From IMG/VR virus record IMGVR_UViG_3300028887_000080, positions 1-64,000 of that record: a stretch of DNA of 64,000 bases. One strand, written 5' to 3'. Positions 2,258 through 57,542 of this stretch are shown in pieces. The DNA is from a virus. Lineage: Duplodnaviria; Caudoviricetes. The notes below the pieces were generated by a model, which saw nothing but the letters and a program-made list of their open reading frames with translations, had not been told where the DNA came from and did not search any database. Made by a program: the position numbers and the translations under genes. The first letter of the stretch is position 1. The number at the start of each line of letters is the position of its first letter.

Positions 2258-2482
2258 ATGATTAAAAAATTCTGCACGAAACACGGCATCGAATATCTTG
2301 GGGAATGTCCCGAATGCGCTTGCGATGCCGAACCGAAAGTTGAAACCAAAACGGAAAGTGCGCCGAATAAAAAGGCATTGAAACCGAAAAGGAAAAACAA
2401 ACCGAAAGGGCGTGATGTCTATACAGGTTCCTACGATGAGAAACTCAAGGCGCTGATGGACAAATGGAATCATAAAAACTGA
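2258..2482 (+). CDS. small basic Cys/His hypothetical protein
   Basis: ORF behind TATAAATA at 2226; CxxH...CxxC. Confidence 0.55.
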   Translation: MIKKFCTKHGIEYLGECPECACDAEPKVETKTESAPNKKALKPKRKNKPKGRDVYTGSYDEKLKALMDKWNHKN

Positions 2483-5399: not shown

Positions 5400-5473
5400 T
5401 TTCCGCATTTTTTTCAACTGCCTGTCAAAAAGTACATCTTTTTTGTTATATTAAATGAAACGGAAGTACATTT

Positions 5474-6052
5474 ATGGCGACAAAATGCAACATAGTTATT
5501 GAAAGAGGCGACGAAACCGCATACCTGTACCATCATTACGACGGTATGCCGGAGCGCGTGGGTGCGGAACTCGAAAAGTTCCTCGCACAGACATCCAACA
5601 GTCAGATGACGCCGAACAGCGTGTACAAGGGATTACGCTATCTTTACGGAGACGGGTATGAGTTGACCGACGGAATACACGGGGACATCGAGTACCTGTA
5701 CACAATAAAGATAGAACCTTCTCTGCAAGAAGTGCTGTTGAGGTGTGACGAGGTTTCGGTTGATTGGACTTCTATGTCTATGTTTCACGCAAACAACACT
5801 TGGGTAAAGAAGTACGAGCGTGTGTTCCCGTTCGTCGACAGGAAGTCAAACAACGGGATGTACACCAAAGGTGATTTGAAGGATATGCGTGTCAGGTTGA
5901 GGTGCGACATTGAAGTTCCTGTCGTCGGCAGTGCGGTTTACAACGAGTGCCCCGACGAGATTGCGATTGATGAGAAGCGTTTGAAACGTATGCTGATTGA
6001 CGCGTTTTCAGGGGAAATCATTGCGAACACAAAAATAGAAATAAAAAAATAG
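5474..6052 (+). CDS. conserved phage hypothetical protein
   Basis: MATKCNI...YHHYDGMP..VG pattern common in phage early proteins; promoter motif at 5439. Confidence 0.7.
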   Translation: MATKCNIVIERGDETAYLYHHYDGMPERVGAELEKFLAQTSNSQMTPNSVYKGLRYLYGDGYELTDGIHGDIEYLYTIKIEPSLQEVLLRCDEVSVDWTSMSMFHANNTWVKKYERVFPFVDRKSNNGMYTKGDLKDMRVRLRCDIEVPVVGSAVYNECPDEIAIDEKRLKRMLIDAFSGEIIANTKIEIKK

Positions 6053-16031: not shown

Positions 16032-16145
16032 AAGAACCATCACAGCAAACTCAAAATCCATAAAAATCAATTAGTAAGTCTTTGTTTTTGTTTTCGCCCG
16101 CCGAACAATCCCTCAAACCAATGACGGGCACCCGCAGGTTCTTGT
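16032..16145 (+). ncRNA. CAGCAA-family structured RNA (long-loop variant)
   Basis: AAGAACC/GGTTCTTGT stem followed by CACAGCAAAC; extended by AGGTCTGAC/GTCAGACCT. Confidence 0.55.
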
Positions 16146-16218
16146 GGCGTCAGACCTATCGGGGACGCCTTCTGGTGTCCCTTACTGAAAACAATGGGGT
16201 AACACCCAATTACAATAT

Positions 16219-16291
16219 AAAGGCGGTTCAGCAAACCTTTCGTTTTAAGCATCAAACTTTTAATTTGAAATCGCTAAACAGACCGCCTTGT
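16219..16291 (+). ncRNA. CAGCAA-family RNA with Lys(UUU) anticodon stem-loop
   Basis: AAAGGCGGTT-CAGCAAAC...TCAAA-CTTTTAA-TTTGA...GACCGCCTTGT then U-tract. Confidence 0.7.
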
Positions 16292-45957: not shown

Positions 45958-46005
45958 TTTGAAACAAAAAAGGGGAGCACATTGTGCCCCCTTTTTTGTT
46001 TCAAA
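45958..46005. terminator. bidirectional terminator at strand convergence
   Basis: TTTGAAACAAAAAAGGGGAGCAC-ATT-GTGCCCCCTTTTTTGTTTCAAA. Confidence 0.8.
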
Positions 46006-46130
46006 AAATCCAAATTGGCAGATAAGCAGAAATCGCCGCTTTTACGGCATTTTATCTTTTTTATGTACACAGATACCATTTTTTGAACATAGTGTCCAAA
46101 ACAGGCGAAAACACGCCTAAAATTAAAAAT

Positions 46131-46643
46131 CTATACCCAAGTTATCTTTTTGTATTCTCCGTCTTCGTAGTAACCGAACGAAAAGCACATCGGGGTTAGG
46201 AAAACTGGTTCTGTGATGATGTTCTTTTTGTATTTGTCCGCATACCCCTTGTTCATATATGCGATTGTGATATGGGGTTTGTAGGTCGTGAACTCCGTGT
46301 GGAGGGTGTAGTTCGCCTTTATCGCGGAGTTTGTCGTATGAAGCGCTTGGCATACCACGCCGCATTTCAGGACGTCGTAGTTGTCGTTGCTGAACACGCT
46401 CACGTCTGAAAGCATTGTCTTGTAGTCGTTGAGAGGAAGCAGGTGCTTTTTCAACTGTTCAAGGTTGACGTCGTTGTCGAGACAGGGAGCGAGCGTGACG
46501 TGCGTCTCGGTTTCAAGTCCATAGACGAACGGTGAATCTGGGTCGCTCGGTTTGTACAGTTCATAGTCCTTGATGCTGTTTTGGATTCCCTTTATGTAGT
46601 CAGGTGTTTGGAAGTCCACCATCAAAAATGCGTATTTGTCCAT
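46131..46643 (-). CDS. 2H phosphoesterase (Acb1/T4 57B- or LigT-like)
   Basis: two HxT motifs: THVTL and YKPHITIAY. Confidence 0.8.
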   Translation of the reverse strand: MDKYAFLMVDFQTPDYIKGIQNSIKDYELYKPSDPDSPFVYGLETETHVTLAPCLDNDVNLEQLKKHLLPLNDYKTMLSDVSVFSNDNYDVLKCGVVCQALHTTNSAIKANYTLHTEFTTYKPHITIAYMNKGYADKYKKNIITEPVFLTPMCFSFGYYEDGEYKKITWV

Positions 46644-46695
46644 ATCTGTTTTTTTTATTATTGTCGGTTTGTATTTATAAACCGCTGCTTGTTAG

Positions 46696-46768
<73 letters not shown>

Positions 46769-46769
46769 T

Positions 46770-47069
46770 TTACACGTCCTTTGACATAAGGACGCCTATT
46801 TTTCCTTCCGTGAAAAGTCTTGCCTGTTCGAGCGTGCAAAAGATTGCGGGTCGTTCGTTGAACTCATTGTCTATGCAGATTGCGACTCTCGGTTCGGACG
46901 GTTCCTCCACATCCTCAAACCAACCGCTTCCGTTCATACAGACCTCGCTTTCATCATCGACCTCATATACGACATAGCGTTTTGCCGTTGAAATTTCAAT
47001 GCTTCCGTCAATGGCGGTTCCGAAAATATAGTTCACGCTTTCTTCTTTGATAATGTATTTGCTTTCCAT
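46770..47069 (-). CDS. acidic hypothetical protein within tRNA cluster
   Basis: ATG ORF between tRNAs. Confidence 0.6.
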   Translation of the reverse strand: MESKYIIKEESVNYIFGTAIDGSIEISTAKRYVVYEVDDESEVCMNGSGWFEDVEEPSEPRVAICIDNEFNERPAIFCTLEQARLFTEGKIGVLMSKDV

Positions 47070-47095
47070 ATTCTTGATTTTTGTTTTTTAATTTG

Positions 47096-47166
47096 TTGTC
47101 GGTCAGAGGGTCGAACTCCGATTAGCGGAACCAGAATCCGCTGTGCTGCCATTACACCAACCGACA
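47096..47166 (-). tRNA. tRNA-Gln(CUG)
   Basis: GCGGA-TTCTGGT-TCCGC. Confidence 0.9.
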
Positions 47167-47370
47167 TTACAAGACCATTTGAGACAATGCCGCCAACTCT
47201 TCCACGTCGTTTCCGATACGCTTAAACAAGGGGTTACATCAATGCTCACCCCCCAACGGACAGTACGTCCGCTGTATCCGACCCGTATCTCAAATCTTGG
47301 GGTGACGTCACTTCCCCGTGAGGACACGTTGTTCTCGGCATAGTCGTCATTGCCCACTTTGGTCATTGTG

Positions 47371-47442
47371 AGCGGTGGACGGGATTTGAACCCGCAACCC
47401 CGACCTTGGCAAGGTCGTATTCTGCCGTTGAACTACCACCGC
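47371..47442 (-). tRNA. tRNA-Gly(GCC)
   Basis: CGACC-TTGCCAA-GGTCG. Confidence 0.93.
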
Positions 47443-47589
47443 ATCGTCTCTTTTCATCAGACTTCCTTGCAATATCCGAATCTTGTACTACCGGGCATCA
47501 ATAAGCACATCCGTCCTATTGACATTTTGAGACACACCCGTTTAATTGTTGTCTATCGTGAAACAATCTAAAGACCGCCTATGTGTTTG

Positions 47590-47662
47590 CAAGACCATAG
47601 GATTTGAACCTCCATTTCATCATTGGACGGATGATATTCTACCAAATTGAACTATCGCCGCC
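47590..47662 (-). pseudogene. degenerate tRNA (Asp GUC-like loop, unpaired acceptor stem)
   Basis: D arm GTTC..GAAT, ATCAT-CCGTCCA-ATGAT, AGG-TTCAAAT-CCT; ends do not pair. Confidence 0.5.
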
Positions 47663-47688
47663 GGACGAAATTTTGGACATTTCGTTTG

Positions 47689-47759
47689 CAGGAGTGGAAG
47701 GACTCGAACCTCCGTCTACGGTTTTGGAGACCGTCGTTCTACCACTGAACCACACTCCT
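47689..47759 (-). tRNA. tRNA-Trp(CCA)
   Basis: ACGGT-CTCCAAA-ACCGT. Confidence 0.93.
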
Positions 47760-47785
47760 ATTCACCGTTGAACTACAGACTCAAG

Positions 47786-47868
47786 TGCGGACGGTGAGAG
47801 TCGAACTCACACGGGGATACCCCCACCACCCCCTCAAGGTGGCGCGCCTGCCATTTCGCCACGTCCGC
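47786..47868 (-). tRNA. tRNA-Leu(GAG)
   Basis: CCACC-TTGAGGG-GGTGG, long variable arm. Confidence 0.92.
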
Positions 47869-48187
47869 ATAATCTCATAGATGCAACCAATCACTTTCCG
47901 CTTTGGCGGTGTATTCGGACTACGGGTCGATTACCTCCGACGTCCTAATTACGTCCATTCTCTCTAACGGGCACTCGATGTCCATCAGTGAAGTTCTATT
48001 CGGGGCGTCGTCACGTTTCCCGCTACGGGTCTATATTGGTTGCATCCGTTTAAGAAATTCGGCAAACGAGTTTTGTATCGTCATCTTAAACTAAATGTTG
48101 ACACAACCGCATCGCATTCTGCGGTCGCTTTGAAACGCCAACAATGTGCCCACAACGAAGGGTCACAAATCTTGCCGTATCCCATTG

Positions 48188-48261
48188 TACCGGCAGGTGG
48201 ATTTGAACCACCGTCTCCGCCTTATGAGGGCGGCGCAAGAAACCGACTCCGCTATGCCGAT
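48188..48261 (-). tRNA. tRNA with CAU anticodon (elongator Met probable)
   Basis: CCGCC-CTCATAA-GGCGG. Confidence 0.85.
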
Positions 48262-48435
48262 GTTTTGAAAACAAAAACCAACAGGTGTTTTGATTAAACT
48301 ATGTATTCCTTTTTCTTGCTTATCGGGTCTCGATGACCCGTGGAACCCACCTCTGATTTGCCTTGCAGCGTCAGTGATTCTCTGTTGTCAATGCACGGAA
48401 CAGTTATGCCCTATCGCAATGTTTTTGTTTCCAAG

Positions 48436-48524
48436 CGGAGGGGGTAGGATTTGAACCCACGGAACCCTTGCGGGTTCGGCGGTTTTCAAGACCGCTGCAA
48501 TAAACCAGACTCTGCCACCCCTCC
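48436..48524 (-). tRNA. tRNA-Ser(UGA)
   Basis: GCGGT-CTTGAAA-ACCGC, long variable arm. Confidence 0.93.
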
Positions 48525-48587
48525 AAAAATACTCCTGCTTTAAGGCAAGTCAGGTGAACCTTTGATATATCATTGATATATCGCTTG

Positions 48588-48661
48588 TGGAGCGTGGGGG
48601 AGTCGAACCCCCGACCCCCTGCGTGCAAAGCAGGTGTTCTGGCCAACTGAACTAACGCCCC
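48588..48661 (-). tRNA. tRNA-Ala(UGC)
   Basis: CCTGC-TTTGCAC-GCAGG; G3:U70. Confidence 0.93.
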
Positions 48662-48774
48662 GTTTACAACCTTTACAGACCGTATGGTTACACACGGGAA
48701 GTATAACCGAACCATACGTCGGTGTGCGCTGAACCCGTATCCGCAAACGGCAGCAACCGTTCCTAATCGGACAT

Positions 48775-49160
48775 CACGGACTTTACTTTTTTATGCACCT
48801 CGCCTTTACAGCGGCACGCACACCATTTCACGCAAACCATAAAGATTGTGGACAGACTCTTTGGTGTTTATCGCTTTGTCTCCGACTTGCATCGTCGCAC
48901 TTGCGGTGTGCGAGACCGTGCCTTCTTTTTTATATATGTCATCCCTTCGGGCATTGGGCAGAAAGGAAAACATAATATATTTGAGAATTTCTCTCTCACG
49001 CGCTTGCGTGGTTCCTGTCGGAATGCTCCTTTCCAATACATTGCAGGGAACACGTCCCCGCGACCGACAGTGGTCGCCCATATATCATTTCAGGGCATTG
49101 CTCCGACAACGGGATGAAAAAGCAAGCGAATCTTATGTTCGCCAAAAAATAAAGTCCGTG
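48775..49160 (-). ncRNA. candidate ~385-nt structured RNA
   Basis: ends pair (CACGGACTTTA/TAAAGTCCGTG); nested stems TCATCCC/GGGATGA, TGTCGGA..AATGC/GCATTCCGACA. Confidence 0.55.
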
Positions 49161-49166
49161 TCGGAA

Positions 49167-49244
49167 TGGTAGCGCGGACGGGACTCGAACCCGCAATCTC
49201 CACCTTGAAAGGGTGGCGACTTAAACCAGTTTGTCCACCGCGCC
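49167..49244 (-). tRNA. tRNA-Glu(UUC)
   Basis: CCACC-CTTTCAA-GGTGG; encoded CCA. Confidence 0.93.
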
Positions 49245-49397
49245 GTTCAGTGCGGTATAACCCGCACGTCCAACTGTTTGTTCATCTTGGAAAGTTGTCA
49301 ACCTGCACGACTTCCTTTTTTGAGTTTTCCGCGCACTGCCGAGTTGTACGGACGAAACTTGAGAATGAAAAAAAAATAGTCAAATAAAAAAACATTG

Positions 49398-49471
49398 GGT
49401 GGAGAGTGGGACTCGAACCCACGACCTACGGAACCACAATCCGCCGTTCTGCCAACTGAACTATCCCCACC
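49398..49471 (-). tRNA. tRNA-His(GUG)
   Basis: GCGGA-TTGTGGT-TCCGT; G-1:C73. Confidence 0.93.
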
Positions 49472-49475
49472 AAAT

Positions 49476-49898
49476 AAGTGATTGATGTGTTGTTACACCA
49501 AATTCTCCGACGGCGGTTTCACGGACATCTCAACGGGCGACTAACTTGGCAACTACGCCCTGCGCCGAACTTTTCTTCATAGTTCGGACACCCCCGCTTT
49601 CGCGGTGAAGATTAAGAGCAATCTCCTCTCGTACTGTCGCTCCTTATCCGTCGTACCTGTCTCCGACACCGAATTGCACTTGCGCCACATCAAGGAGACA
49701 CCCGTGTTTCAACGGGATTTTAATTGAGGACAACCGTGTATTCGTGCTTGTGACTCCGTGAGGTTGCCCATACCGCACCAAGTTCGCTGGTATGGTGTTC
49801 TTGTGACGTAAATCAACTATGCGCATAGTAGTATGTAGTCACTACCTCTTGAAACTCTTTAGAGGATGGACACTATCAGTCCCACCTTTCAATCACTT
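49476..49898 (-). ncRNA. candidate ~420-nt structured RNA
   Basis: ends pair (AAGTGATTGA/TCAATCACTT) exactly between tRNA-Ser and tRNA-His; many internal hairpins. Confidence 0.55.
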
Positions 49899-49899
49899 G

Positions 49900-49987
49900 C
49901 GGAGAGTGAGGGACTTGAACCCCCGCGCCGTTTTCACGACCTATCTGTTTAGCAAACAGACCCCTTCACCGACTTGGGTAACTCTCC
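49900..49987 (-). tRNA. tRNA-Ser(GCU)
   Basis: TCTGT-TTGCTAA-ACAGA, long variable arm. Confidence 0.92.
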
Positions 49988-50154
49988 AAAAAAGCAAAAT
50001 CTTACACAAGACGAGTTGCGCTTTAACTCTCTTGTCCTTCGCTGTGGCGAGACCACGGATTGCTCCGCACTTTTGTTGTTAAACTTCCACAGACCCCATT
50101 CTCATCGGAATCCCAAGCGGAAAAGATTTTATCCGCACCCTTTGATTTTGCTAT

Positions 50155-50299
50155 GCTGTTATGGCGGGACTCGAACCCGCAGTACCGCAGTAATCCTGAA
50201 CCGCGGGCAACCTTTACGTCTCACTCCCAAGACTTCTAATCTGACCGACAATGGTGACGGTTTCAAGCGAGGGTTTGCCAATTCCCCTTCACATAACAG
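50155..50299 (-). ncRNA. tRNA-like RNA with 8-bp acceptor stem and expanded anticodon arm
   Basis: CTGTTATG/CATAACAG, D-like AGGG..TGG..CCCT, GCGGG-TTCGAGT-CCCGC; ~60-nt central domain. Confidence 0.65.
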
Positions 50300-50318
50300 T
50301 TGTGTGTTGATGAATTTG

Positions 50319-50397
50319 TAGGGGAGGTGGGACTCGAACCCACATACACCAATTACAGAATTAACGACTGTATATAAGACAGGACTGATACACCCCT
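50319..50397 (-). ncRNA. D-armless tRNA-Ile(UAU)-like RNA with long variable arm
   Basis: AGGGGTG/CTCCCCT, CTGT-CTTATAT-ACAG, GTGGG-TTCGAGT-CCCAC; only 8 nt where D arm should be. Confidence 0.65.
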
Positions 50398-50485
50398 ATG
50401 CGATGCCGAGAATCCCTGTCATAAATTTGCCCGCCAACGGCGGACACCCATCAACAGATGGGGCAAGGCATTGCTTGTGAAAGAG

Positions 50486-50559
50486 TGCTCCCAGCAGGAC
50501 TTGAACCTACGACCCCCTGATTATGAGTCAGGCGCACTAACCAACTGTGCTATGGGAGC
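50486..50559 (-). tRNA. tRNA with CAU anticodon (Ile2/lysidine type probable)
   Basis: CCTGA-CTCATAA-TCAGG. Confidence 0.88.
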
Positions 50560-50565
50560 ATAGAA

Positions 50566-50639
50566 ACAAGGCGGTTTTTTTAGCGAGTACAAATTAACGG
50601 TTTGTTGCTTGAAAATAGTGGTTTGCGGAATCCGCCTTT
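50566..50639 (-). ncRNA. CAGCAA-family RNA, Asn(GUU)-like loop
   Basis: AAAGGCGG-ATTCCGCAAAC..ACAAA-CCGTTAA-TTTGT..CCGCCTTGT. Confidence 0.7.
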
Positions 50640-50678
50640 ATATGTTCAGTATTATGGAAAAAGAGAAAATTCAAAAAA

Positions 50679-50749
50679 ACAAGGCAGGGGTTGTTAGCGA
50701 GTACAAATTAAAAGTTTGTTGCTTGGATAGGTTTGCTGCACCTGCCTTT
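50679..50749 (-). ncRNA. CAGCAA-family RNA, Lys(UUU) loop
   Basis: AAAGGCAGG-TGCAGCAAAC..ACAAA-CTTTTAA-TTTGT..CCTGCCTTGT. Confidence 0.72.
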
Positions 50750-50788
50750 ATTATTCAGTATTATGGAAAGAGAAGATTCAAAAAAAAA

Positions 50789-50855
50789 ACAAGGGAGATT
50801 TGTTGCGTTTCAAAGTTACAGTTTGATGCCTACAATGTTTGCTGAACCTCCCTTT
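50789..50855 (-). ncRNA. CAGCAA-family RNA, Tyr(GUA) loop
   Basis: AAAGGGAGGTT-CAGCAAAC..TCAAA-CTGTAAC-TTTGA..AATCTCCCTTGT. Confidence 0.72.
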
Positions 50856-50859
50856 AGAT

Positions 50860-50927
50860 ACAAGGTGATTTTTTTGCTTGGTTGAATTTGGATTTCACTT
50901 TGCAATGCGTTTGCTGCAATCACCTTT
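50860..50927 (-). ncRNA. CAGCAA-family RNA, Trp(CCA) loop
   Basis: AAAGGTGATT-GCAGCAAAC..TGAA-ATCCAAA-TTCA..AATCACCTTGT. Confidence 0.7.
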
Positions 50928-50939
50928 TTGTTTTAATTG

Positions 50940-51012
50940 TATCCCCGCAGGGACTCGAACCCCAATCTTGAGTTCCGTGGACTCACATTCTAATCCATTG
51001 AACTACGGGGAC
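50940..51012 (-). tRNA. tRNA-Arg(ACG), C33 variant
   Basis: TGAGT-CCACGGA-ACTCA. Confidence 0.88.
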
Positions 51013-51117
51013 TTATATGGGCGGGGTTATCGTCATACCTTACTATAGTTATACGCCGAATATGATGTTATCCCCTGCGTAAACTTGTTCCAATGTACGG
51101 TTGGAGTTTACGTTTAG

Positions 51118-51190
51118 TGGGAAGGGGTGGAGTCGAACCACCATCATCGGATTTTCAGTCCGCTGCATAGACCTGCTTTGCTACCTTCCC
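51118..51190 (-). tRNA. tRNA-Phe(GAA)
   Basis: GCGGA-CTGAAAA-TCCGA. Confidence 0.9.
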
Positions 51191-51269
51191 GTTTTGCGGA
51201 TGTGTGTCTCGCGACAGGCGTCCGCAACTGATAAATATAAAAAAACACAAATAAAATGATTATCACAAG

Positions 51270-51340
51270 AGCGGCATATCAGAATCGAACTGACATATCC
51301 AGATTGGAAGTCTGGCGCACTGCCTTTGTGCTAATGCCGC
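51270..51340 (-). tRNA. tRNA-Gly(UCC)
   Basis: CCAGA-CTTCCAA-TCTGG. Confidence 0.92.
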
Positions 51341-51363
51341 GTGAGGCGCGCGTCCGCGCCCGT

Positions 51364-51427
51364 ACAAGAGGCGTGATGAAATGACTTATCCCAAAAGTTT
51401 TTCTTGTTTTTTGCCGAATGCCTCTTT
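51364..51427 (-). ncRNA. CAGCAA-family RNA, Pro(GGG)-like loop
   Basis: AAAGAGGC-ATTCGGCAA..ACTT-TTGGGAT-AAGT..GCCTCTTGT. Confidence 0.65.
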
Positions 51428-51432
51428 TTTTG

Positions 51433-51546
51433 CCGCGGAGATTGGAGTCGAACCAATGTCAGGAGTTCCCAATAGCGAAAATTGCTGATAGGTTCTTTGA
51501 ACAAGAATCATTTGCTACTCCCGTTCTGCCGTTAAACTACTCCGCG
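51433..51546 (-). ncRNA. tRNA-Pro(UGG)-like RNA with ~43-nt CAGCAA module inserted in anticodon arm
   Basis: CGCGGAG/CTCCGCG, D and T arms intact; GGAGT-[insert]-ATTGGGA-ACTCC. Confidence 0.7.
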
Positions 51547-51890
51547 ATGTTCCGACATAATGTGGTGTGAACCGCTGAAACCACAATCGCACTTTCGCTG
51601 TCGGGGCGAACTCCGCTTTGTTTCTCCGGAGCGGAAAACCATCACTGCATTCGTTTTGATTAACAATATACAGCATCACGGTATCGCACCGTGCTCTCTC
51701 CGCAGGGTCGCGGGCGTGTCACTTGACACCTATGTTGCAGTGATTGTATGTCCTCCCGCCCGTGCCTTTGCACATTATCTGCGGATTTGTATGGACACGT
51801 TTCAAGGTTGTGCTGAAACCCGACGCCATTCTAAATGTTATTTTAAGGAAGCGTTTAACTCTCCTAAAACTATGTGCGGCATAGTCTTTG

Positions 51891-51961
51891 TTGAACTTGG
51901 AGGACTCGAACCTCCACCAACAGAACCAAAATCTGTTGTGCTGCCATTACACCAAAGTTCA
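51891..51961 (-). tRNA. tRNA-Gln(UUG)
   Basis: ACAGA-TTTTGGT-TCTGT. Confidence 0.92.
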
Positions 51962-51966
51962 ATATG

Positions 51967-52038
51967 TGGGTCGGGCGGGACTCGAACCCGCAGTCCCCTG
52001 ATTAAGAGTCAGGTGCAGTGCCATTTTGCTACCGACCC
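51967..52038 (-). tRNA. tRNA-Lys(CUU)
   Basis: CCTGA-CTCTTAA-TCAGG. Confidence 0.92.
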
Positions 52039-52042
52039 GATG

Positions 52043-52198
52043 TGGGCAGGGAAGGATTTGAACCTCCGAACCCGAATGGGAGCGGATTGGCAATGTGGGA
52101 AATTACGAATTTCCGAAACTTCATTATTCACATTGCGGTTTAACGTGTAACCTTCACGTAGTACAGTCCGCCGCGTTTAACCACTTCGCTACCTGCCC
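52043..52198 (-). tRNA. tRNA-Tyr(GUA) with 73-nt insertion/intron (52089-52161)
   Basis: GCGGA-CTGTA-[73 nt]-AA-TCCGC; all other arms canonical. Confidence 0.85.
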
Positions 52199-52210
52199 TT
52201 ATAGAATTTG

Positions 52211-52281
52211 TGGACATTACGGGAATCGAACCCGCTTTCACGCCTCCCGTTGCAGTGGGACACGCTACTGCCGTTATGCCC
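52211..52281 (-). pseudogene. atypical tRNA-like RNA (8-nt loop ACUGCAAC, Cys/Ala-like)
   Basis: GGGCAT/ATGTCC, T arm GCGGG-TTCGATT-CCCGT, shortened D arm. Confidence 0.5.
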
Positions 52282-52292
52282 TTGTTGTTATG

Positions 52293-52364
52293 TGTCACGG
52301 ATGAGACTCGAACTCACAATCCCCTGATTAAAAGTCAGGTGCATCGCCATTATGCTACCGTGGC
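52293..52364 (-). tRNA. tRNA-Lys(UUU)
   Basis: CCTGA-CTTTTAA-TCAGG; C2:A71 mismatch; 5' end overlapped by endonuclease ORF. Confidence 0.88.
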
Positions 52365-53189
52365 ATTTTTTATTTTTTGTATTATATTTTTAATGAATCG
52401 TTCTTTACATTCTTTTGGCATTTTTTTATACCGAGACCATCTTATTCTAAATAAACACGTCCATCCATTTTTTTGTAATACTTCAGTTCGTTTTTTGTCG
52501 TGTTTAACAATACGCTTGTCCAAATAATGTTGTTCCCCATCAACTTCAAAATATGTTTTTGTTATTGGAAATGCAAAATCCAAAAAATACCCAAATTGAT
52601 AATAATTTTGTTCATATTCAATATGTTCATCATTCAAAATTTGCTTAAAATACTTTTCACAATAACTATCACCGTGTGAATGATGATTTAATACATAAGG
52701 AACTTTATTCGGGTGCTTTTTCAAATACTTTTTTCTAATATCAGAAAGGTGCTGTTTTTCTTGTTCAGTATGCTTTATTCCTTTTTGTGGACTTTTTAAT
52801 TCACCGTTTTCATAACGGAGTTTAAGTGAAATTGCTGCTTGTTTAACACGCTCATCTGTCTCTTTTGTTAAACCTTTGTTCCACGGACGCTTACCCATCA
52901 TACCATTACGATATACTCTATTTTTGTTTTGTGGACACTTACATTCGTGTGCTTTAAGTGATTTTACACTATAACATTGTTTTCCACAGTATTTACAAAC
53001 AAGACTTTCATCTTTGTCGTAATGATAATTTTCATTACTATGTTTTTTTGAATATACCGCATAACCACAAACGTGATTTTCCAAAGGTTTTCTATTTGGA
53101 TTCAACTTACAAGTTCTTTCGTGAATACCCAATGCACAAGAACGTTTTAACATTTTGTTACAATACCTACAAATATACATCATTTCCAA
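52350..53189 (-). CDS. free-standing homing endonuclease (Zn fingers, NUMOD3-like motifs, DUF559/Vsr-like nuclease)
   Basis: CRYC..HERTC, PWNKGLTKE, KGIKHTEQEK, YFLDFAF..EVDGEQH..HDKKR..GW..RIRW; AT-rich. Confidence 0.8.
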   Translation of the reverse strand: MEMMYICRYCNKMLKRSCALGIHERTCKLNPNRKPLENHVCGYAVYSKKHSNENYHYDKDESLVCKYCGKQCYSVKSLKAHECKCPQNKNRVYRNGMMGKRPWNKGLTKETDERVKQAAISLKLRYENGELKSPQKGIKHTEQEKQHLSDIRKKYLKKHPNKVPYVLNHHSHGDSYCEKYFKQILNDEHIEYEQNYYQFGYFLDFAFPITKTYFEVDGEQHYLDKRIVKHDKKRTEVLQKNGWTCLFRIRWSRYKKMPKECKERFIKNIIQKIKNATVA

Positions 53190-53236
53190 TATATTATTAT
53201 ATTTATAAGTACGCTAACATTGAGTTATCATCATTG

Positions 53237-53309
53237 TAGCGGGAGCAGGACTCGAACCTGCGATTACGAGATTATGAGACTCGTGAGATGACCACTTCTC
53301 CATCCCGCT
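53237..53309 (-). tRNA. tRNA-Met(CAU), initiator-like
   Basis: AGCGGGATGGAG.. body; CGAGT-CTCATAA-TCTCG. Confidence 0.85.
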
Positions 53310-53315
53310 ATGTTT

Positions 53316-53386
53316 ACAAGGTGGCATAACCATTAACCTTAAATTAAATAAATACTATGGAAACTGTTTTGCTGAAAACCACCTTT
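53316..53386 (-). ncRNA. CAGCAA-family RNA (weak UAA-type loop)
   Basis: AAAGGTGGT-TTTCAGCAAAAC..CCAT/ATGG..GCCACCTTGT. Confidence 0.62.
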
Positions 53387-53390
53387 CTTG

Positions 53391-53464
53391 CTGGGATGGA
53401 GGGACTTGAACCCCCGACTTACGGATTAACAGTCCGCCGTTCTGACCAACTGAACTACATCCCA
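53391..53464 (-). tRNA. tRNA-Asn(GUU)
   Basis: GCGGA-CTGTTAA-TCCGT. Confidence 0.93.
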
Positions 53465-53470
53465 TTGTTG

Positions 53471-53545
53471 TGGGCAAGGCAGGACTTGAACCTGCGACCC
53501 CCGCCTTATCAGAGCGGTGTTCTGACCAAACTGAACTACTTGCCC
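53471..53545 (-). tRNA. tRNA-Ile(GAU)
   Basis: CCGCT-CTGATAA-GGCGG. Confidence 0.93.
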
Positions 53546-53623
53546 GTGAAAATTGAGTTGGTTTATGGTCTAACTCAAGACTAACGACCGCTCTTATTAT
53601 GAAAAACAATAATATGGTTTTTG

Positions 53624-53707
53624 TGGTCGGGGCGGGAATTGAACCCGCACGTCCTTTCGGACAAAGGTTTTTGAGACCTTCGCGTCTACCAATTCCGCCA
53701 CCCGACC
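53624..53707 (-). tRNA. tRNA-Leu(CAA)
   Basis: AAGGT-CTCAAAA-ACCTT, long variable arm. Confidence 0.93.
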
Positions 53708-53750
53708 GCAGGCGTCAATGCGGCAAAGAGAGCGTAAAAAGGATTTATAG

Positions 53751-53831
53751 TGCGTCAGAAAGGACTCGAACCTTCACGCCTCTCGGCATCGGTTCCTAAA
53801 ACCGACGTGTCTGCCATTCCACCACAGACGC
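53751..53831 (-). tRNA. tRNA-Leu(UAG)
   Basis: TCGGT-TTTAGGA-ACCGA, long variable arm. Confidence 0.92.
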
Positions 53832-53836
53832 ATTTT

Positions 53837-53891
53837 ACAAGATACTTAAAATTTCCTATAATTTTTTTAATAGATTGCTGAATGTATCTTT
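53837..53891 (-). ncRNA. CAGCAA-family RNA (short, no anticodon loop)
   Basis: AAAGATAC-ATTCAGCAA-TCTAT..ATAGG..GTATCTTGT. Confidence 0.62.
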
Positions 53892-53899
53892 ATTTCTCG

Positions 53900-53977
53900 C
53901 GTACCGTACGGGACTCGAACCCGCATTTACCTCCGTCACGATGACAGCGTGCTTACCGCTATTACACCAAACGATAC
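53900..53977 (-). ncRNA. tRNA-like RNA (Asp-derived) with rearranged anticodon arm
   Basis: GTATCGT/ACGGTAC, intact D and T arms; CTGTCA-TCG-TGACGG. Confidence 0.55.
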
Positions 53978-54053
53978 TGACGGGAGATTGAACGCTAAAG
54001 AATGCGGTATCGCGATTACCGCGAAGCGTCTTGTACAACCTTTGTCCCGTTTG

Positions 54054-54125
54054 CGGTCACACTGGGAATCGAACCCAAATCTCGTGATAGACAGTCACGC
54101 ATCTTAACCTTTAGACGATGCGACC
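54054..54125 (-). tRNA. tRNA-Asp(GUC), U37 variant
   Basis: CGTGA-CTGTCTA-TCACG. Confidence 0.9.
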
Positions 54126-54451
54126 GTTTGTCGGTTTATGTCCGCGCCTCTCCACGACGCTTCCAATCTTTTGCATAATTTCAGCGATTTATACACGCAG
54201 TTCCGACTACTTTGCGTGTGCCCCGTAAAAATGTGGAACATACATCTACGGACATAACTCCCCGCAGCGGAGCAGGCGTTTTTTCACGCAACGCCCCTTG
54301 CGTACCATTACGGCGGTATTGGAGACGCCGCAAGGAATTTGACCGTTTTTATGGAGACCGCCACCTGACAGGCGGTTTGTCCAATTTCTTTTTAGAATGC
54401 GGATTTCCGATAACCTTGCATTCCATTTTAAGCGTTTTTAACTTGTCAGGA

Positions 54452-54492
54452 TTTTTGGCGCGTGTTACGCCGTTTTTGGCGCGTGTTACGCC
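54452..54492. repeat. 20-bp direct tandem repeat
   Basis: TTTTTGGCGCGTGTTACGCC x2 separated by 1 nt. Confidence 0.85.
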
Positions 54493-54542
54493 CACGCCTT
54501 ACGACCGCGACGCGAACTTATAAGAACGCACCGGGGGATTTG

Positions 54543-54615
54543 AGCCGCAGGGGAGACTTGAACTCCCAACTTTCGGTTTACAAAACCGATACTCTACCAG
54601 TTGAGTTACAGCGGC
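54543..54615 (-). tRNA. tRNA-Thr(UGU)
   Basis: TCGGT-TTTGTAA-ACCGA. Confidence 0.88.
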
Positions 54616-54727
54616 ATTTGAAGGGGTGGATGCTCACTGATGGTGGGACGCCGCTGAATTTTGTGCGTATATGCCCGACCTGTTCGTTTTACATACACCC
54701 CTTTTAGGTGTTTGCTTTCTGCCAATA

Positions 54728-54806
54728 TGTCAAAGAACTTTCGTTCGTCGGCGGCGTTAAGACCGCCTGCATTTGAATATAATAAAAAAAATCAACTTTT
54801 TTACAG
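54728..54806 (-). promoter_or_regulatory. tRNA-operon promoter with boxB-like hairpin and boxA-like GTTCTTTGACA
   Basis: GTAAAAAA..TTTTTATTATATTCAA, hairpin GGCGG..CCGCC, then GTTCTTTGACA. Confidence 0.65.
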
Positions 54807-55158
54807 ATATTGAAAAAAATCTCAAAAAAAAATCGGAGGTTGCTTTCACATACCTCCGATTCTATTTGGTTTCAGTGGGGTATGGTCATTCTTCCTTTGA
54901 GTATTCATTATCTTGTTTCTGTCCGAAACTTGCACCATTGCCGTCAAAAATGCCGCAATACGCCTGTTTCGGGGATATGTGCTTCCCTGTTTTTGGCGTG
55001 CGGTTGTCGGTTGCGATGTTTGTTTTGGAAAGAATCATTGAGTTCTTTTTATTATTTTTTCGGAATATATTTATACAAGTGTTTTTGCACTGTTTCCAAT
55101 GGGTGTGAAAATGGTGCAAAACCTCTGAAAATGAATATATCGCAGATATATCTGACAT

Positions 55159-55190
55159 AAAAAAAGCGTGTGGGTGCACACACGCTTTTT
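55159..55190 (-). terminator. intrinsic terminator
   Basis: AAAAAGCGTGTG-GGTG-CACACGCTTTTT-type hairpin with A/T tracts. Confidence 0.7.
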
Positions 55191-55211
55191 GTCTTGTTTT
55201 GGAAGTTTTTG

Positions 55212-57542
55212 TTACTTTTCAGTGTCGTTGAGTTCTATGTAGCATTTTTTCAGTTGGTCGTAATCCGGTTCAATGCACCAAGACAGGTATCCAAGTAGTT
55301 GTTCTTTGATGTCGTGCTCGTATATGACAAACATAATTTTGTTTTTCATAGGCAGTAGTTTCTTCAAAGGAGTGACGTCCCAAAAGCCGCCGTCAGTCAA
55401 AAACAACCATACTGAATTTCTGTCGCTCTGTCTTGTTTTCAAGATATAGTCAACACAGTCTTTCACTTCGGTTCCACCACCTGCGTCGTTGTTCGTTGCC
55501 ATTTCGATGACAAGTTTCATTGCTGCCTCCTTGTTTTTCTTCACCTCATCGGCAACCATATATATACCTGATTTGAGGTCTATTGTGTCTGCGAACGGGA
55601 TGAGTGTGATTCCGCTGTATTGGAGTTTTGTACAGCAATTCACCAAAGTGTCGGCAAAGAGTTCAACAACGTCAAGGTTGACAGACCCTGATGTATCCAC
55701 AAACACGTTGATGTTTTGTGGGGCGGCGTCTCCCTTCGGGTGATATGGGCGCATAAGGTCGTGTGCAAGCACTCGCTTGTCACCCCATCTTGTACGGGTG
55801 TTGTCTTTGAGTTTGTGTTTTCTGTTGGCATAGATTGTGTTTGCTTCAAGGAATATCTTTACGATTTCATCCCACATTTTATGGATAGTGGTATCGTTCA
55901 TCTTTATCCTTCTGCAAATTTTCCCGATTGCTGATTTGGGTTTTTGTCTGATGATGTTGTTTCGCAATTCTTTCACCTCTTCCCTTGAAATGACGTTCTT
56001 TGAAGCGACTTCGGTGAGTGTTTCTTCAATTTCCCTGTCGCTGAAACCGCTGTTTTTCAAAGCGCCTTTCAGTTTCTCCTTAACTTCGGACTGCTTTACG
56101 ATTTTTCCGACTGCTGTCGGTTTGAATTTATAATCACCCCTTATTTGCGGACGAAGTTCCTTGCGCTTTTGGTTTTTGTTTTTTCTTGCGGCAGACCTGT
56201 TTATTTTTCCGCCGCCGCCTGCACCAAGTCCTTTTTCACCGTAATTCTTTGAATTTCCACCGCTTCCGCCGTTTGTGCGTTTGCCGTCACGATTGCCTTC
56301 TTTGTTTTGTTGACTGCCTTGACTTCCCTGTTGGTCGCTTTGCTGACTGCCTTGCTGACCGCCTTGTTGGTTGTCTTGCTGACCGCCTTGCTGACTGCCT
56401 TGCTGACTGCCTTGTTGGTTGTTTGAAAAATCACCCATAGCGTTGTCGGCGGAATTTACGGCGTCGTCTGCCGATTGTTGTGCATTTTCATTTTCATCGC
56501 GTGCTTTCTGTGCTTCCCGTCTTGCCTTGTTTACATCGCCGTTTTCAGACGCTTCAAATGCCTTGTCCGCGGCTTCTTGTGCGGCGTTTGCTGCATCCTG
56601 CGCCTTGTCAGCGAGTTCCTGTGTTTTATCGGCGAGTTCCTGTGCCTTGTCCGCTTTGTTTTTTGCATCTTTGTATTTGGGGGAATCTTCGCCGAAACGG
56701 GATTTCGCCTTTCTTGCATTGTCTCTTGCGTCATCGGCAAGTTCCTGTGCGTCGTTTGCCGCGTCCTGTGCGTCGTTTGCCGCGTCCTGTGCTGCGTTGG
56801 CTGCGTTCTGTGCTGCACTTGCGGCATCCTGTGCATTCATTTTTGAAACATCCCTGTTGTCGGAGTCGCTTCCGTATTTTTCAAGGGATTCCTTTGCCGC
56901 GTCCTGTGACATCCAAGATTCCATAGCGGCGTCCTGTGCTGCGTTTTTCGCATCCTGTGCTGCATTCTGCGCGTTCTTCGCTTCTTTTCTTGCAGTTTCG
57001 TCGTCACCGTTTTGTGCGGCGGATTTTGATTTGTTTGCTGCATTCTGCGCAGCGTTTGCTGCGTCCTGTGCTTCTTGTGCTGCTTTTTTTGCATCTTTTG
57101 CCGATTCGTTTGCTTCATCGGCAAGTGCCTTTGCGTCTTTATACTCATCGGAGCTTTCGCCAAATTCAGACTTGATTTCCTCTGCTGTGTTCTGTGCGTT
57201 CTCGGCTGCGTTCTTTGCGGACTGTGCTGCGTTGGATGCCTTGTCAGCATCTTTCTGCGCCCTGTCCGCTGCATTCTGTGCCTCGTTTGCTGCGTCGTCC
57301 GCGTTCATTTCCGAAACATCGGCGTCGTTGACGTCGTTGCTTTCACCCTGACCATTTTGTGGAACGATTGGTTTTTCCTTGTCTGTTTCTGGTTTTGGTT
57401 CGTTGTTTTGGTCTTCGTTGGAACCTCCGCCAAGCAATGCGTTTTGAAGTTCACTCACGGCATCGTCAAACCCCTGTTCGAGACCACTTTCGTATGTCGA
57501 GTATTCTTTTGGTGCAACTGAATTTTCATTTATTATTTTCAT
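55212..57542 (-). CDS. vWA (MIDAS) protein with long Ala-rich coiled coil and Gln/Gly linker
   Basis: VFVDTSGS, GGGTE, FLTDG; heptad AQDAAN repeats; QQGS repeats. Confidence 0.85.
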   Translation of the reverse strand: MKIINENSVAPKEYSTYESGLEQGFDDAVSELQNALLGGGSNEDQNNEPKPETDKEKPIVPQNGQGESNDVNDADVSEMNADDAANEAQNAADRAQKDADKASNAAQSAKNAAENAQNTAEEIKSEFGESSDEYKDAKALADEANESAKDAKKAAQEAQDAANAAQNAANKSKSAAQNGDDETARKEAKNAQNAAQDAKNAAQDAAMESWMSQDAAKESLEKYGSDSDNRDVSKMNAQDAASAAQNAANAAQDAANDAQDAANDAQELADDARDNARKAKSRFGEDSPKYKDAKNKADKAQELADKTQELADKAQDAANAAQEAADKAFEASENGDVNKARREAQKARDENENAQQSADDAVNSADNAMGDFSNNQQGSQQGSQQGGQQDNQQGGQQGSQQSDQQGSQGSQQNKEGNRDGKRTNGGSGGNSKNYGEKGLGAGGGGKINRSAARKNKNQKRKELRPQIRGDYKFKPTAVGKIVKQSEVKEKLKGALKNSGFSDREIEETLTEVASKNVISREEVKELRNNIIRQKPKSAIGKICRRIKMNDTTIHKMWDEIVKIFLEANTIYANRKHKLKDNTRTRWGDKRVLAHDLMRPYHPKGDAAPQNINVFVDTSGSVNLDVVELFADTLVNCCTKLQYSGITLIPFADTIDLKSGIYMVADEVKKNKEAAMKLVIEMATNNDAGGGTEVKDCVDYILKTRQSDRNSVWLFLTDGGFWDVTPLKKLLPMKNKIMFVIYEHDIKEQLLGYLSWCIEPDYDQLKKCYIELNDTEK

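Follow-up and report, generated by a model that had tools for sequence, protein, structure and literature searches.

What are the short hairpin elements that recur between the tRNA genes of a large phage, and why do several of them look like isolated anticodon stem-loops? The question is raised by positions 50,566 to 50,927 of a Caudoviricetes genome fragment, where four such elements follow one another on the minus strand. The stretch analysed, hereafter the window, comprises 64,000 nucleotides (nt) and is the first 64 kb of IMG/VR record IMGVR_UViG_3300028887_000080, a contig of 124,221 bp with a CheckV completeness of 39%. An initial annotation, made from the letters of the window, had described nine elements of this type and interpreted them as modular RNAs with a constant, protein-binding base and a variable anticodon-type bait, serving as nuclease decoys or as Y-RNA-like partners of a protein of the Ro60/TROVE or RNA-repair type encoded elsewhere. 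Ro60 and the Y RNAs form a long-studied and poorly understood RNA-surveillance system. In our analysis, the ten elements now recognized are probably genes for small structured RNAs that dock onto a Ro60-like protein, which is the best explanation we can offer. These RNAs, which we call handle RNAs, would probably correspond to Y RNAs and serve as partners of a ring protein of the DUF2828/DUF7788 family.

A family of small RNAs built on a common handle

The nine free-standing elements (A to I, Table 1) share one plan: an AAAG start, a closing stem of 7-9 bp, one to four unpaired bases, the motif CNGCAA (usually UUCAGCAAAC), a variable interior, the complementary arm and a CUUGU end, over a total length of 55-115 nt. 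A script scan of the whole contig returned eight of them exactly where they had been annotated and the ninth, element B, in a longer form, and placed all copies of the handle in the first 64 kb. The general AAAG-stem-motif-stem'-CUUGU layout and the individual stems proposed at the outset are correct. The motif CAGCAAAC is found ten times in the window against 2.6 expected; part of this excess is due to a coding repeat unrelated to the handle RNAs, in which CAGCAA recurs every 12 or 24 nt (56340-56405, -) inside a 776-amino-acid (aa) open reading frame (ORF; 55212-57542) with alanine-zipper-like repeats.

The closing stem shows covariation. In a 14-sequence alignment it is 98.9% paired, with three invariant pairs (A-U, A-U and G-C), and four of its seven pairs are changed on both sides. 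This amounts to 16 compensatory cells versus 3.7 +/- 1.5 in shuffled controls, a value reached by 0 of 500 shuffles, and the pairing is lost when the partner columns are slid. The alignment was fitted to a covariance model and hence favours the structure, but the raw sequences directly show the same pairing. The interiors vary on this constant frame. That of element B is about 90 nt long with a GC-rich hairpin, and its orthologues in three relatives (L014, L015 and L016) keep the handle, with a hairpin whose sequence has changed yet remains paired; the orthologue of element A in L016 carries the loop CUUGUAA. The elements form a family united by a covarying closing stem and by the anticodon-loop signature described below. 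No Rfam family matches the nine free-standing elements, even at permissive thresholds, and the family was likewise not found in the literature searched.

ARAGORN and Rfam make no tRNA call at any of the nine free-standing elements, and a tRNA body is present only at the tenth copy, in which the handle is circularly permuted. There, a tRNA with acceptor, D and T arms carries a 50-nt insert in the place of the anticodon loop, which reads ...UUCUUGU-UC-AAAGAAC-CUAU-CAGCAA..., that is, 3' arm, CUUGU, two-base loop, AAAG, 5' arm and CAGCAA. The earlier statement that the elements lack acceptor and T arms is therefore accurate for the nine elements that it described and fails for the family, since this tenth copy and many copies in relatives lie within tRNA bodies.

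Scans for sigma-70 promoters and terminators gave chance-level results over the elements, and reading them by eye as Bacteroidota promoters on both strands yielded no consistent match. The spacers separating E, D and C (50640-50678 and 50750-50788, -) are conserved, with a sequence of roughly UUUUUGAAUYUUCUCUUU..CCAUAAUACUGAA.A.AU before AAAGG. No agreement with the sigma-70 or the Bacteroidota consensus was seen; a phage promoter driving transcription units of one RNA each may lie in these spacers. Metatranscriptome contigs from four cattle-gut libraries, compared over 46000-55500, give no clear cover of 50566-50927, and such libraries lose RNAs of 60-70 nt; element G is reached by a single RNA-library contig, which derives from a relative and ends 2 nt past the 3' end of the element. 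Consisting of assembled contigs from which small RNAs are lost, this material is uninformative on handle transcripts either way.

The variable interiors imitate anticodon stem-loops

The six 7-nt loops of anticodon type reported at the outset are all present in the window (Table 1). The loop CUUUUAA is identical to that of the phage's own tRNA-Lys(UUU), and CCGUUAA and AUCCAAA are each one base off the loops of its Asn and Trp tRNAs, respectively. As four of the copies in the window are paralogues, the sample was widened to relatives, and the best interior hairpin of 75 distinct members from this phage and related phages was compared with that of shuffled interiors. A 7-nt apical loop was found in 37 of the 75 members versus 7.1 +/- 2.5 in shuffles (maximum 15). 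U33 together with R37 (loop positions 2 and 6) occurred in 33 members versus 1.2 (maximum 6), and the full Y32-U33-R37 signature in 30 versus 0.6. The hairpin stems vary widely yet stay paired (UCAAA, AUAGA, UUGAA, AGAAA, UACAA and others), and on the scaffold [U/A]CAAA-7 nt-UUUG[A/U] variation is confined to the central triplet. The commonest triplet is that of Lys(UUU), displayed by 12 members on five different stems, and at least 15 anticodons are displayed, including those of Ser, Thr, Phe, Cys, Pro, Leu and Ile. The interiors, hereafter the cargo, are thus a true imitation of anticodon stem-loops; in other phages, a T arm or a whole tRNA takes their place. The modular picture of a constant, protein-binding-like base with a variable anticodon-type cargo holds. 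The triplets found in relatives only were not significantly enriched in known nuclease targets (hand estimate, p ~0.15).

A deviation from the canonical loop was noted beside the elements. The phage tRNA-Arg(ACG) gene (50939-51012, -) has the loop CCACGGA, in which C33 replaces the near-universal U33, and C33 also occurs in two handle RNAs, CCGUUAA in this phage and CCGAAAA in the relative G027.

Handle RNAs accompany DUF2828 genes in related phages

Relatives were collected through the 2H phosphoesterase encoded next to the tRNA array, homologues of which are a marker of huge gut and rumen phages; 41 IMG/VR records were obtained. Two covariance models, R1 and then R2, were built solely from copies located in the tRNA arrays of this phage and of three relatives. 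Other routes were less productive: the neighbouring 776-aa gene has no relatives in IMG/VR, and the DNA polymerase as an anchor led to relatives of at most 35% identity, the elements occurring in none. An exact-pattern scan of IMG/VR for the handle gave eight matches, all due to chance and none with a pairing stem, and a loose scanner for a stem and CNGCAA, which returned about 33 chance matches per 124 kb in shuffles, was tightened.

Of the 41 records, six contain a DUF2828 gene, and each of these has a model match. The gene is also present in G002, which at 96% completeness is the fullest record among the close relatives. Among records at least 90% complete, a match was found in four of four with DUF2828 versus one of seven without it, the latter being weak and unconvincing (hand-calculated Fisher test, p ~0.015, or 0.003 when only matches at E < 0.01 are counted). 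DUF2828 is encoded in none of five further records, all of them fragments of 9-31% completeness; L069 has one strong model match, L078 one weak match, and L075, L076 and L092 have tRNA arrays.

The association was then examined from the protein side, on 80 IMG/VR loci (1.0 Mb) picked solely for a DUF2828 gene. Model R2 gave 138 matches at E <= 5 in these loci, of which 60, distributed over 46 loci, had E <= 0.01, whereas 76 control phage loci (1.29 Mb) gave 11 and one, respectively. Nearly all of the 138 matches fall within about 2 kb of the DUF2828 gene and 135 lie on its strand, a bias of strand and position that is far beyond chance. Several of the controls contain 20-tRNA arrays devoid of handles (handle-less arrays: L075, L079, L083 and L087).

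Handles are also found in two other contexts next to DUF2828 genes. In G002, G027 and G021, a mini-handle precedes the start codon of the DUF2828 gene by about 20 nt (loci in Table 1); its motif is degenerate (CAGCGG, CAGCAU and AAGCAA), and in G002 its stem is the same as that of the free-standing copies. This layout is as expected if the DUF2828 protein binds its own leader, and the protein may thus regulate its own translation. In addition, many 'long tRNAs' of 103-123 nt with a hairpin and ACAGCAA stand beside the DUF2828 genes of L183, L171, L213, L191 and L226. The insert either replaces the anticodon loop or follows the D arm, ahead of a short anticodon stem-loop that has been kept. In L226, an RNA cluster upstream of the DUF2828 gene also includes a RAGATH-18 RNA (RF03064, 67.2 bits; 5462-5525, +), whose neighbours are handle RNAs and a handle-bearing tRNA.

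Several observations weigh against this pairing or against its extension to the present phage. Neither TROVE (PF05731) nor DUF2828 (PF11443) was detected in the 124-kb, 39%-complete contig, and no DUF2828/TROVE gene was found in the closest relative, G001 (42% complete). The 2H marker proteins of the relatives are at most 64% identical to that of this phage, whose motif, UUCAGCAA, is slightly unlike the commonest form, UACAGCAA. The counts of DUF2828 loci overstate their independence, because many of these loci are closely related. DUF2828 genes also often lie among tRNA genes, and co-location could partly reflect a shared preference for tRNA arrays, an interpretation countered by the existence of handle-less arrays. 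Because the contig has no DUF2828/TROVE gene, the protein pairing for this phage rests on relatives. The absence of DUF2828 from a 39% fragment is unsurprising, since in the complete relatives G027 and G002 the RNAs of the tRNA array are about 85-200 kb away from the DUF2828 gene; the neighbourhood of that gene in G002 has no counterpart in this contig. Of the co-occurrences proposed initially, that with DUF2828 is borne out among relatives, while TROVE and RtcB were not found in the contig, nor were RNA ligase families.

The DUF2828/DUF7788 protein is predicted to adopt a Ro60-like fold

The DUF2828/DUF7788 protein of G002 was modelled with AlphaFold from a 22-sequence alignment, with a mean predicted local distance difference test (pLDDT) of 86.8 and a predicted template modelling score (pTM) of 0.87. 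In a Foldseek comparison of this model with the PDB, the best 13 matches were all Ro60/TROVE structures aligned over the full length (E 3e-9 to 1e-5), namely Ro60 of Thermus phage phiLo, Xenopus Ro with RNAs, human Ro60 and Deinococcus Rsr. The template modelling (TM) scores of these 13 matches ranged from 0.35 to 0.58 and were at least 0.47 except for Deinococcus Rsr; isolated vWA domains came lower in the list. The model predicts the Ro60-type ring, in which HEAT-like repeats are closed by a vWA domain with a metal ion-dependent adhesion site (MIDAS), and the MIDAS residues DxSxS...T...D are invariant across the 22 DUF2828 sequences. At the sequence level, Pfam assigns the G002 protein to DUF2828 and DUF7788 only, TROVE (PF05731) remaining unmatched, and a phmmer search against PDB sequences gave no match. 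The modelled structure thus shows a predicted Ro60-like fold for the protein of the relatives.

The family is very large, with at least 6,614 clusters, from the 8,000 candidates compared, matching DUF2828 at E <= 1e-10, and its clusters in the Protein Atlas are mostly viral. No paper on DUF2828, DUF7788 or the handle motif was found in the literature searched. The role of Y-RNA-like partners of a Ro60/TROVE-type protein encoded outside the window, one of the two first suggested, is supported in its DUF2828 form through the co-occurrence, co-orientation, leaders and fold observed in relatives. Binding of the RNA by the protein is probable, as co-occurrence, co-orientation, leader handles and the Ro60-like fold all point to it.

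A model for the handle RNAs and its alternatives

In the model that we favour, the handle RNAs would probably be co-transcribed with the tRNA array and released by tRNA-processing enzymes, a trimming suggested by the spacers of 3-11 nt. Each RNA would comprise two modules. The constant handle consists of the closing helix AAG...CUUG(U) followed by the unpaired (U)(U/A)CAGCAA, and the variable cargo is usually a hairpin of 4-5 bp with a 7-nt loop, Y32-U33-NNN-R37, and once a whole tRNA body. Helix and CAGCAA would together dock onto a phage-encoded Ro60-like ring of the DUF2828/DUF7788 family, as genomic linkage suggests; the connectivity of the helix would be immaterial, since the permuted copies keep the same module. 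The gene for this ring would be encoded in the missing ~60% of the genome. The cargo would be held out from the ring as a tRNA look-alike and, by analogy with Y RNAs (PMC4201824, PMC12135203), could tether or gate the ring or show the mimic to tRNA-reading enzymes. The displayed loops could then engage a reader of anticodon loops, which may be a host anticodon nuclease, a tRNA-modifying enzyme or a tRNA-repair enzyme. A bolder version of this model, which we consider unlikely in its entirety, is that the particle formed with DUF2828 displays a panel of anticodon loops, joined in some phages by whole tRNA look-alikes, that traps, misleads or recruits such readers, above all tRNA-cleaving defence nucleases, and that the same handle also defines the Class I RNAs of amoebae.

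The other role suggested initially, that of free-standing decoys that soak up host anticodon nucleases such as PrrC, AriB, PtuAB or colicin E5 and need no Ro60-like partner, appears unlikely. The identity of CUUUUAA with the phage's own tRNA-Lys(UUU) loop, the copying of real anticodon loops by other members, the prevalence of Lys(UUU), on several different stems, and the position of the array beside a 2H phosphoesterase, a setting tied to tRNA damage and repair, all speak for such decoys. However, many of the displayed anticodons have no known nuclease, and a display of this breadth disfavours a bait meant solely for the nucleases already described for Lys, Tyr and Asn. The AU-rich stems of 4-5 bp are also unlike the anticodon stems of the phage tRNAs, and a bare decoy leaves both the conserved handle and the tight linkage to DUF2828 unexplained. 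Decoy action is compatible with docking onto a Ro60-like ring, as a step downstream of it. A role as small regulatory RNAs, in which the loops would pair with tRNAs (kissing) or with mRNA codons and a different chaperone, not DUF2828, would be drawn in by the handle, is very improbable: exposed 7-nt loops whose central triplets vary while the scaffold is conserved are in keeping with it, but pairing over three bases offers little specificity, complementary targets were neither sought nor noticed, and here too the DUF2828 linkage would have no explanation.

Two further readings dispense with a functional RNA. If the elements were punctuation of the tRNA operon, that is, processing or termination signals without an independent RNA, their short distances to neighbouring tRNAs and the T-runs that follow three copies (A, D and E) would be accounted for. 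This is nevertheless quite improbable, as none of the copies coincides with a called terminator-like site and most have no clear T-run, two copies are located outside the array between protein genes, and other phage tRNA arrays do without handles. Handles are also found within tRNA bodies and in the leaders of DUF2828 genes, and conservation of the unpaired CAGCAA, of both ends and of the anticodon-type loops extends across phages whose marker proteins are only 34-64% identical. That the elements act at the DNA level, as miniature inverted-repeat mobile elements or as hairpin sites for a recombinase or endonuclease, is barely plausible, even though they occur in many copies with inverted repeats at their ends, and the array contains a DUF559 endonuclease gene. 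No target duplications were noticed, and all copies are oriented with local transcription. Their arms differ from copy to copy yet stay complementary, which suggests that pairing, and not a DNA site for a protein, is under selection, and a permuted module within tRNA bodies is sensible at the RNA level only.

If docking onto a DUF2828/DUF7788 ring is correct, a branch of phage Ro60-type particles would become testable, with a defined docking motif, and the handle RNAs would be the partners of a very large uncharacterised protein family. Many unannotated small RNA genes in phage tRNA arrays would likewise be explained, and the anticodon loops and tRNA bodies on display would point to a role in the conflict over tRNAs between phages and bacterial defences.

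Genomic setting and other features of the tRNA array

Cattle-gut metagenomes contain DNA that is near-identical to the phage contig. Eight of the ten handle copies are embedded in the tRNA array, and seven of the nine free-standing elements are spaced 3-11 nt from adjacent tRNAs. The other two, A and B, are situated between a NUDIX gene and a DUF932 gene.

Table 1. Handle RNAs and associated features. Positions refer to the window, except for the leader mini-handles, which are given in the coordinates of their own loci.
Feature	Positions	Strand	Description
2H-phosphoesterase gene (2',5' RNA ligase / Acb1-like)	46131..46643	-	Adjoins the tRNA array; weak Pfam and PHROGs matches
tRNA array	46695..54615	-	27-29 tRNA genes; ARAGORN and Rfam
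Handle RNA A	16219..16291	+	Stem AAGGCGG/CCGCCUU, then UUCAGCAAAC; 80.8 bits; hairpin UCAAA-CUUUUAA-UUUGA, Lys(UUU)-type loop; T-run 3' of the element
Handle RNA B (long, free-standing)	16032..16146	+	Stem AAGAACC/GGUUCUU, then AUCA-CAGCAAAC; CUUGU end; script scan
Handle RNA C	50566..50639	-	Motif variant CCGCAA; hairpin ACAAA-CCGUUAA-UUUGU, Asn-like loop with C33; ends 6 nt before tRNA-Met
Handle RNA D	50679..50749	-	Stem AAGGCAGG/CCUGCCUU; hairpin ACAAA-CUUUUAA-UUUGU (Lys)
Handle RNA E	50789..50855	-	Stem AAGGGAGG/(U)CUCCCUU; hairpin UCAAA-CUGUAAC-UUUGA (Tyr-like), which recurs in relative G027
Handle RNA F	50860..50927	-	Stem AAGGUGAUU/AAUCACCUU; hairpin UGAA-AUCCAAA-UUCA (Trp-like); begins 11 nt after tRNA-Arg
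Handle RNA G	51364..51427	-	Stem AAGAGGC/GCCUCUU; motif variant CGGCAA; 38.5 bits; hairpin ACUU-UUGGGAU-AAGU (Pro-like)
Handle RNA H	53316..53386	-	Stem AAGGUGG/CCACCUU, then UUUUCAGCAAAA; 64.9 bits; two-step hairpin with 7-nt loop UUUAAUU; 3 nt after tRNA-Asn, 6 nt before tRNA-Met
Handle RNA I	53837..53891	-	Shortest, 55 nt; stem AAGAUAC/GUAUCUU, then AUUCAGCAAU; 10-nt hairpin loop
Tenth handle, circularly permuted within a tRNA body	51433..51546	-	Rfam tRNA 44.3 bits, E 1e-8
Leader mini-handle (36-50 nt), L110	~2394-2450	-	
Leader mini-handle (36-50 nt), L109	880-925	+	
Leader mini-handle (36-50 nt), L112	~1410-1450	+	

Several other features of the array deserve mention. A 279-aa ORF with a DUF559/Vsr-like endonuclease domain (52350-53189, -) lies within it, as is also the case in the relative L023, and overlaps a 'tmRNA' called by ARAGORN at 52210-52592. 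This call is probably false, with a tag of five residues and an Rfam tmRNA match of only 16 bits. A tRNA-Tyr(GUA)-like gene (52043-52198, -; Rfam tRNA 47.1 bits) has an insertion of about 73 nt right after the anticodon, which is below the size of a group I intron. One RNA-library contig links 52088 to 52162, skipping 73 nt, and may result from cross-mapping of host tRNA-Tyr.

The array also includes inter-tRNA gaps of 350-450 nt (48727-49175, 49483-49891, 51529-51870 and 54121-54460), which are present as RNA-library contigs in several cattle-gut metatranscriptomes with zero or few mismatches. The gap between tRNA-Ser and tRNA-His reaches a depth of about 3,500 in one run, and its contig is permuted, with a joint that jumps back 409 nt over an 18-nt palindrome, the arrangement to be expected of a circular or tandem form. 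No Rfam match was obtained for these long gaps, which may be large stable non-coding RNAs.

Comparison with known systems

Phage-encoded Ro60 accompanied by Y-like RNAs and tRNA-mimicking Y RNAs are both established (PMC12135203, PMC4201824, PMC7824862), and jumbo-phage genomics has grouped TROVE proteins with tRNA-repair and counter-defence functions (PMC7824862). The closest parallel to the handle RNAs is provided by this Ro60/Y RNA system, including YrlA and the Yrl RNA of phiLo (RF02553; PMC4201824, PMC12135203). Both kinds of RNA are small and combine an end helix with a module that mimics part of a tRNA. The end helix of Y RNAs docks a ring of HEAT repeats and a vWA domain; here, genomic linkage suggests the same docking, on a partner protein that in the relatives is likewise Ro60-like in its predicted fold. 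At 51433-51546, as in YrlA, a tRNA body carries the putative docking module in the place of the anticodon loop, and this copy would correspond to the tRNA-mimicking YrlA type. The two systems differ in several respects. Y RNAs dock through a bulged helix and a CGAA-type motif, whereas handles would do so through a helix and an unpaired CAGCAA. YrlA is without an anticodon stem-loop, whereas most handle copies show that part alone. Unlike Y RNAs, handles occur in many copies per genome, and their protein is DUF2828/DUF7788 instead of TROVE. The Y RNA and YrlA models (RF00019 and RF02553) gave no match at any element, and the only YrlA matches of the window are weak, at 23-26 bits where the gathering score is 69, and fall over ordinary tRNAs. 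Given that the Rfam Y RNA models do not recognize the RNAs, nor the TROVE model the protein, the system is filed as a variant of Ro60/Y RNA and not as a member.

Stable small RNAs other than tRNAs within a phage tRNA cluster presumably have a precedent in the species 1 and 2 RNAs of phage T4 (rnaC and rnaD). These are released with the tRNAs and have no known function. They are about twice as long as the handle RNAs.

The handle itself strikingly resembles the Class I RNAs of dictyostelids (RF01414; PMC7919456). The two share an AAG start, a short covarying stem, an adjacent unpaired motif ending in CAGCAA, a length of about 60 nt, a variable interior and a CUGU end, which is CUUGU in this phage and CUGU in its relatives G014, G021 and G028. 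Class I RNAs are reportedly restricted to Dictyostelia, with a terminal stem of about 6 bp, an upstream DUSE promoter and an RRM-protein partner (PMC7919456), whereas the present elements belong to a phage of cattle-gut bacteria; neither an anticodon-like cargo nor a Ro60-like partner has been described for them. In a whole-genome comparison, the best RF01414 match was element I, end-to-end and on the right strand, at 13.5 bits (E ~1) against a gathering score of 41.5, and the four elements at 50566-50927 gave no match at E <= 10. The handle thus agrees with the published Class I definition in each of these shared features, and a score of 13.5 bits does not support membership in RF01414. The function of Class I RNAs has been open for two decades, and the likeness suggests a concrete partner to seek in amoebae; if it is more than a resemblance, one ancient RNA-protein docking rule would be common to phages and a eukaryote.

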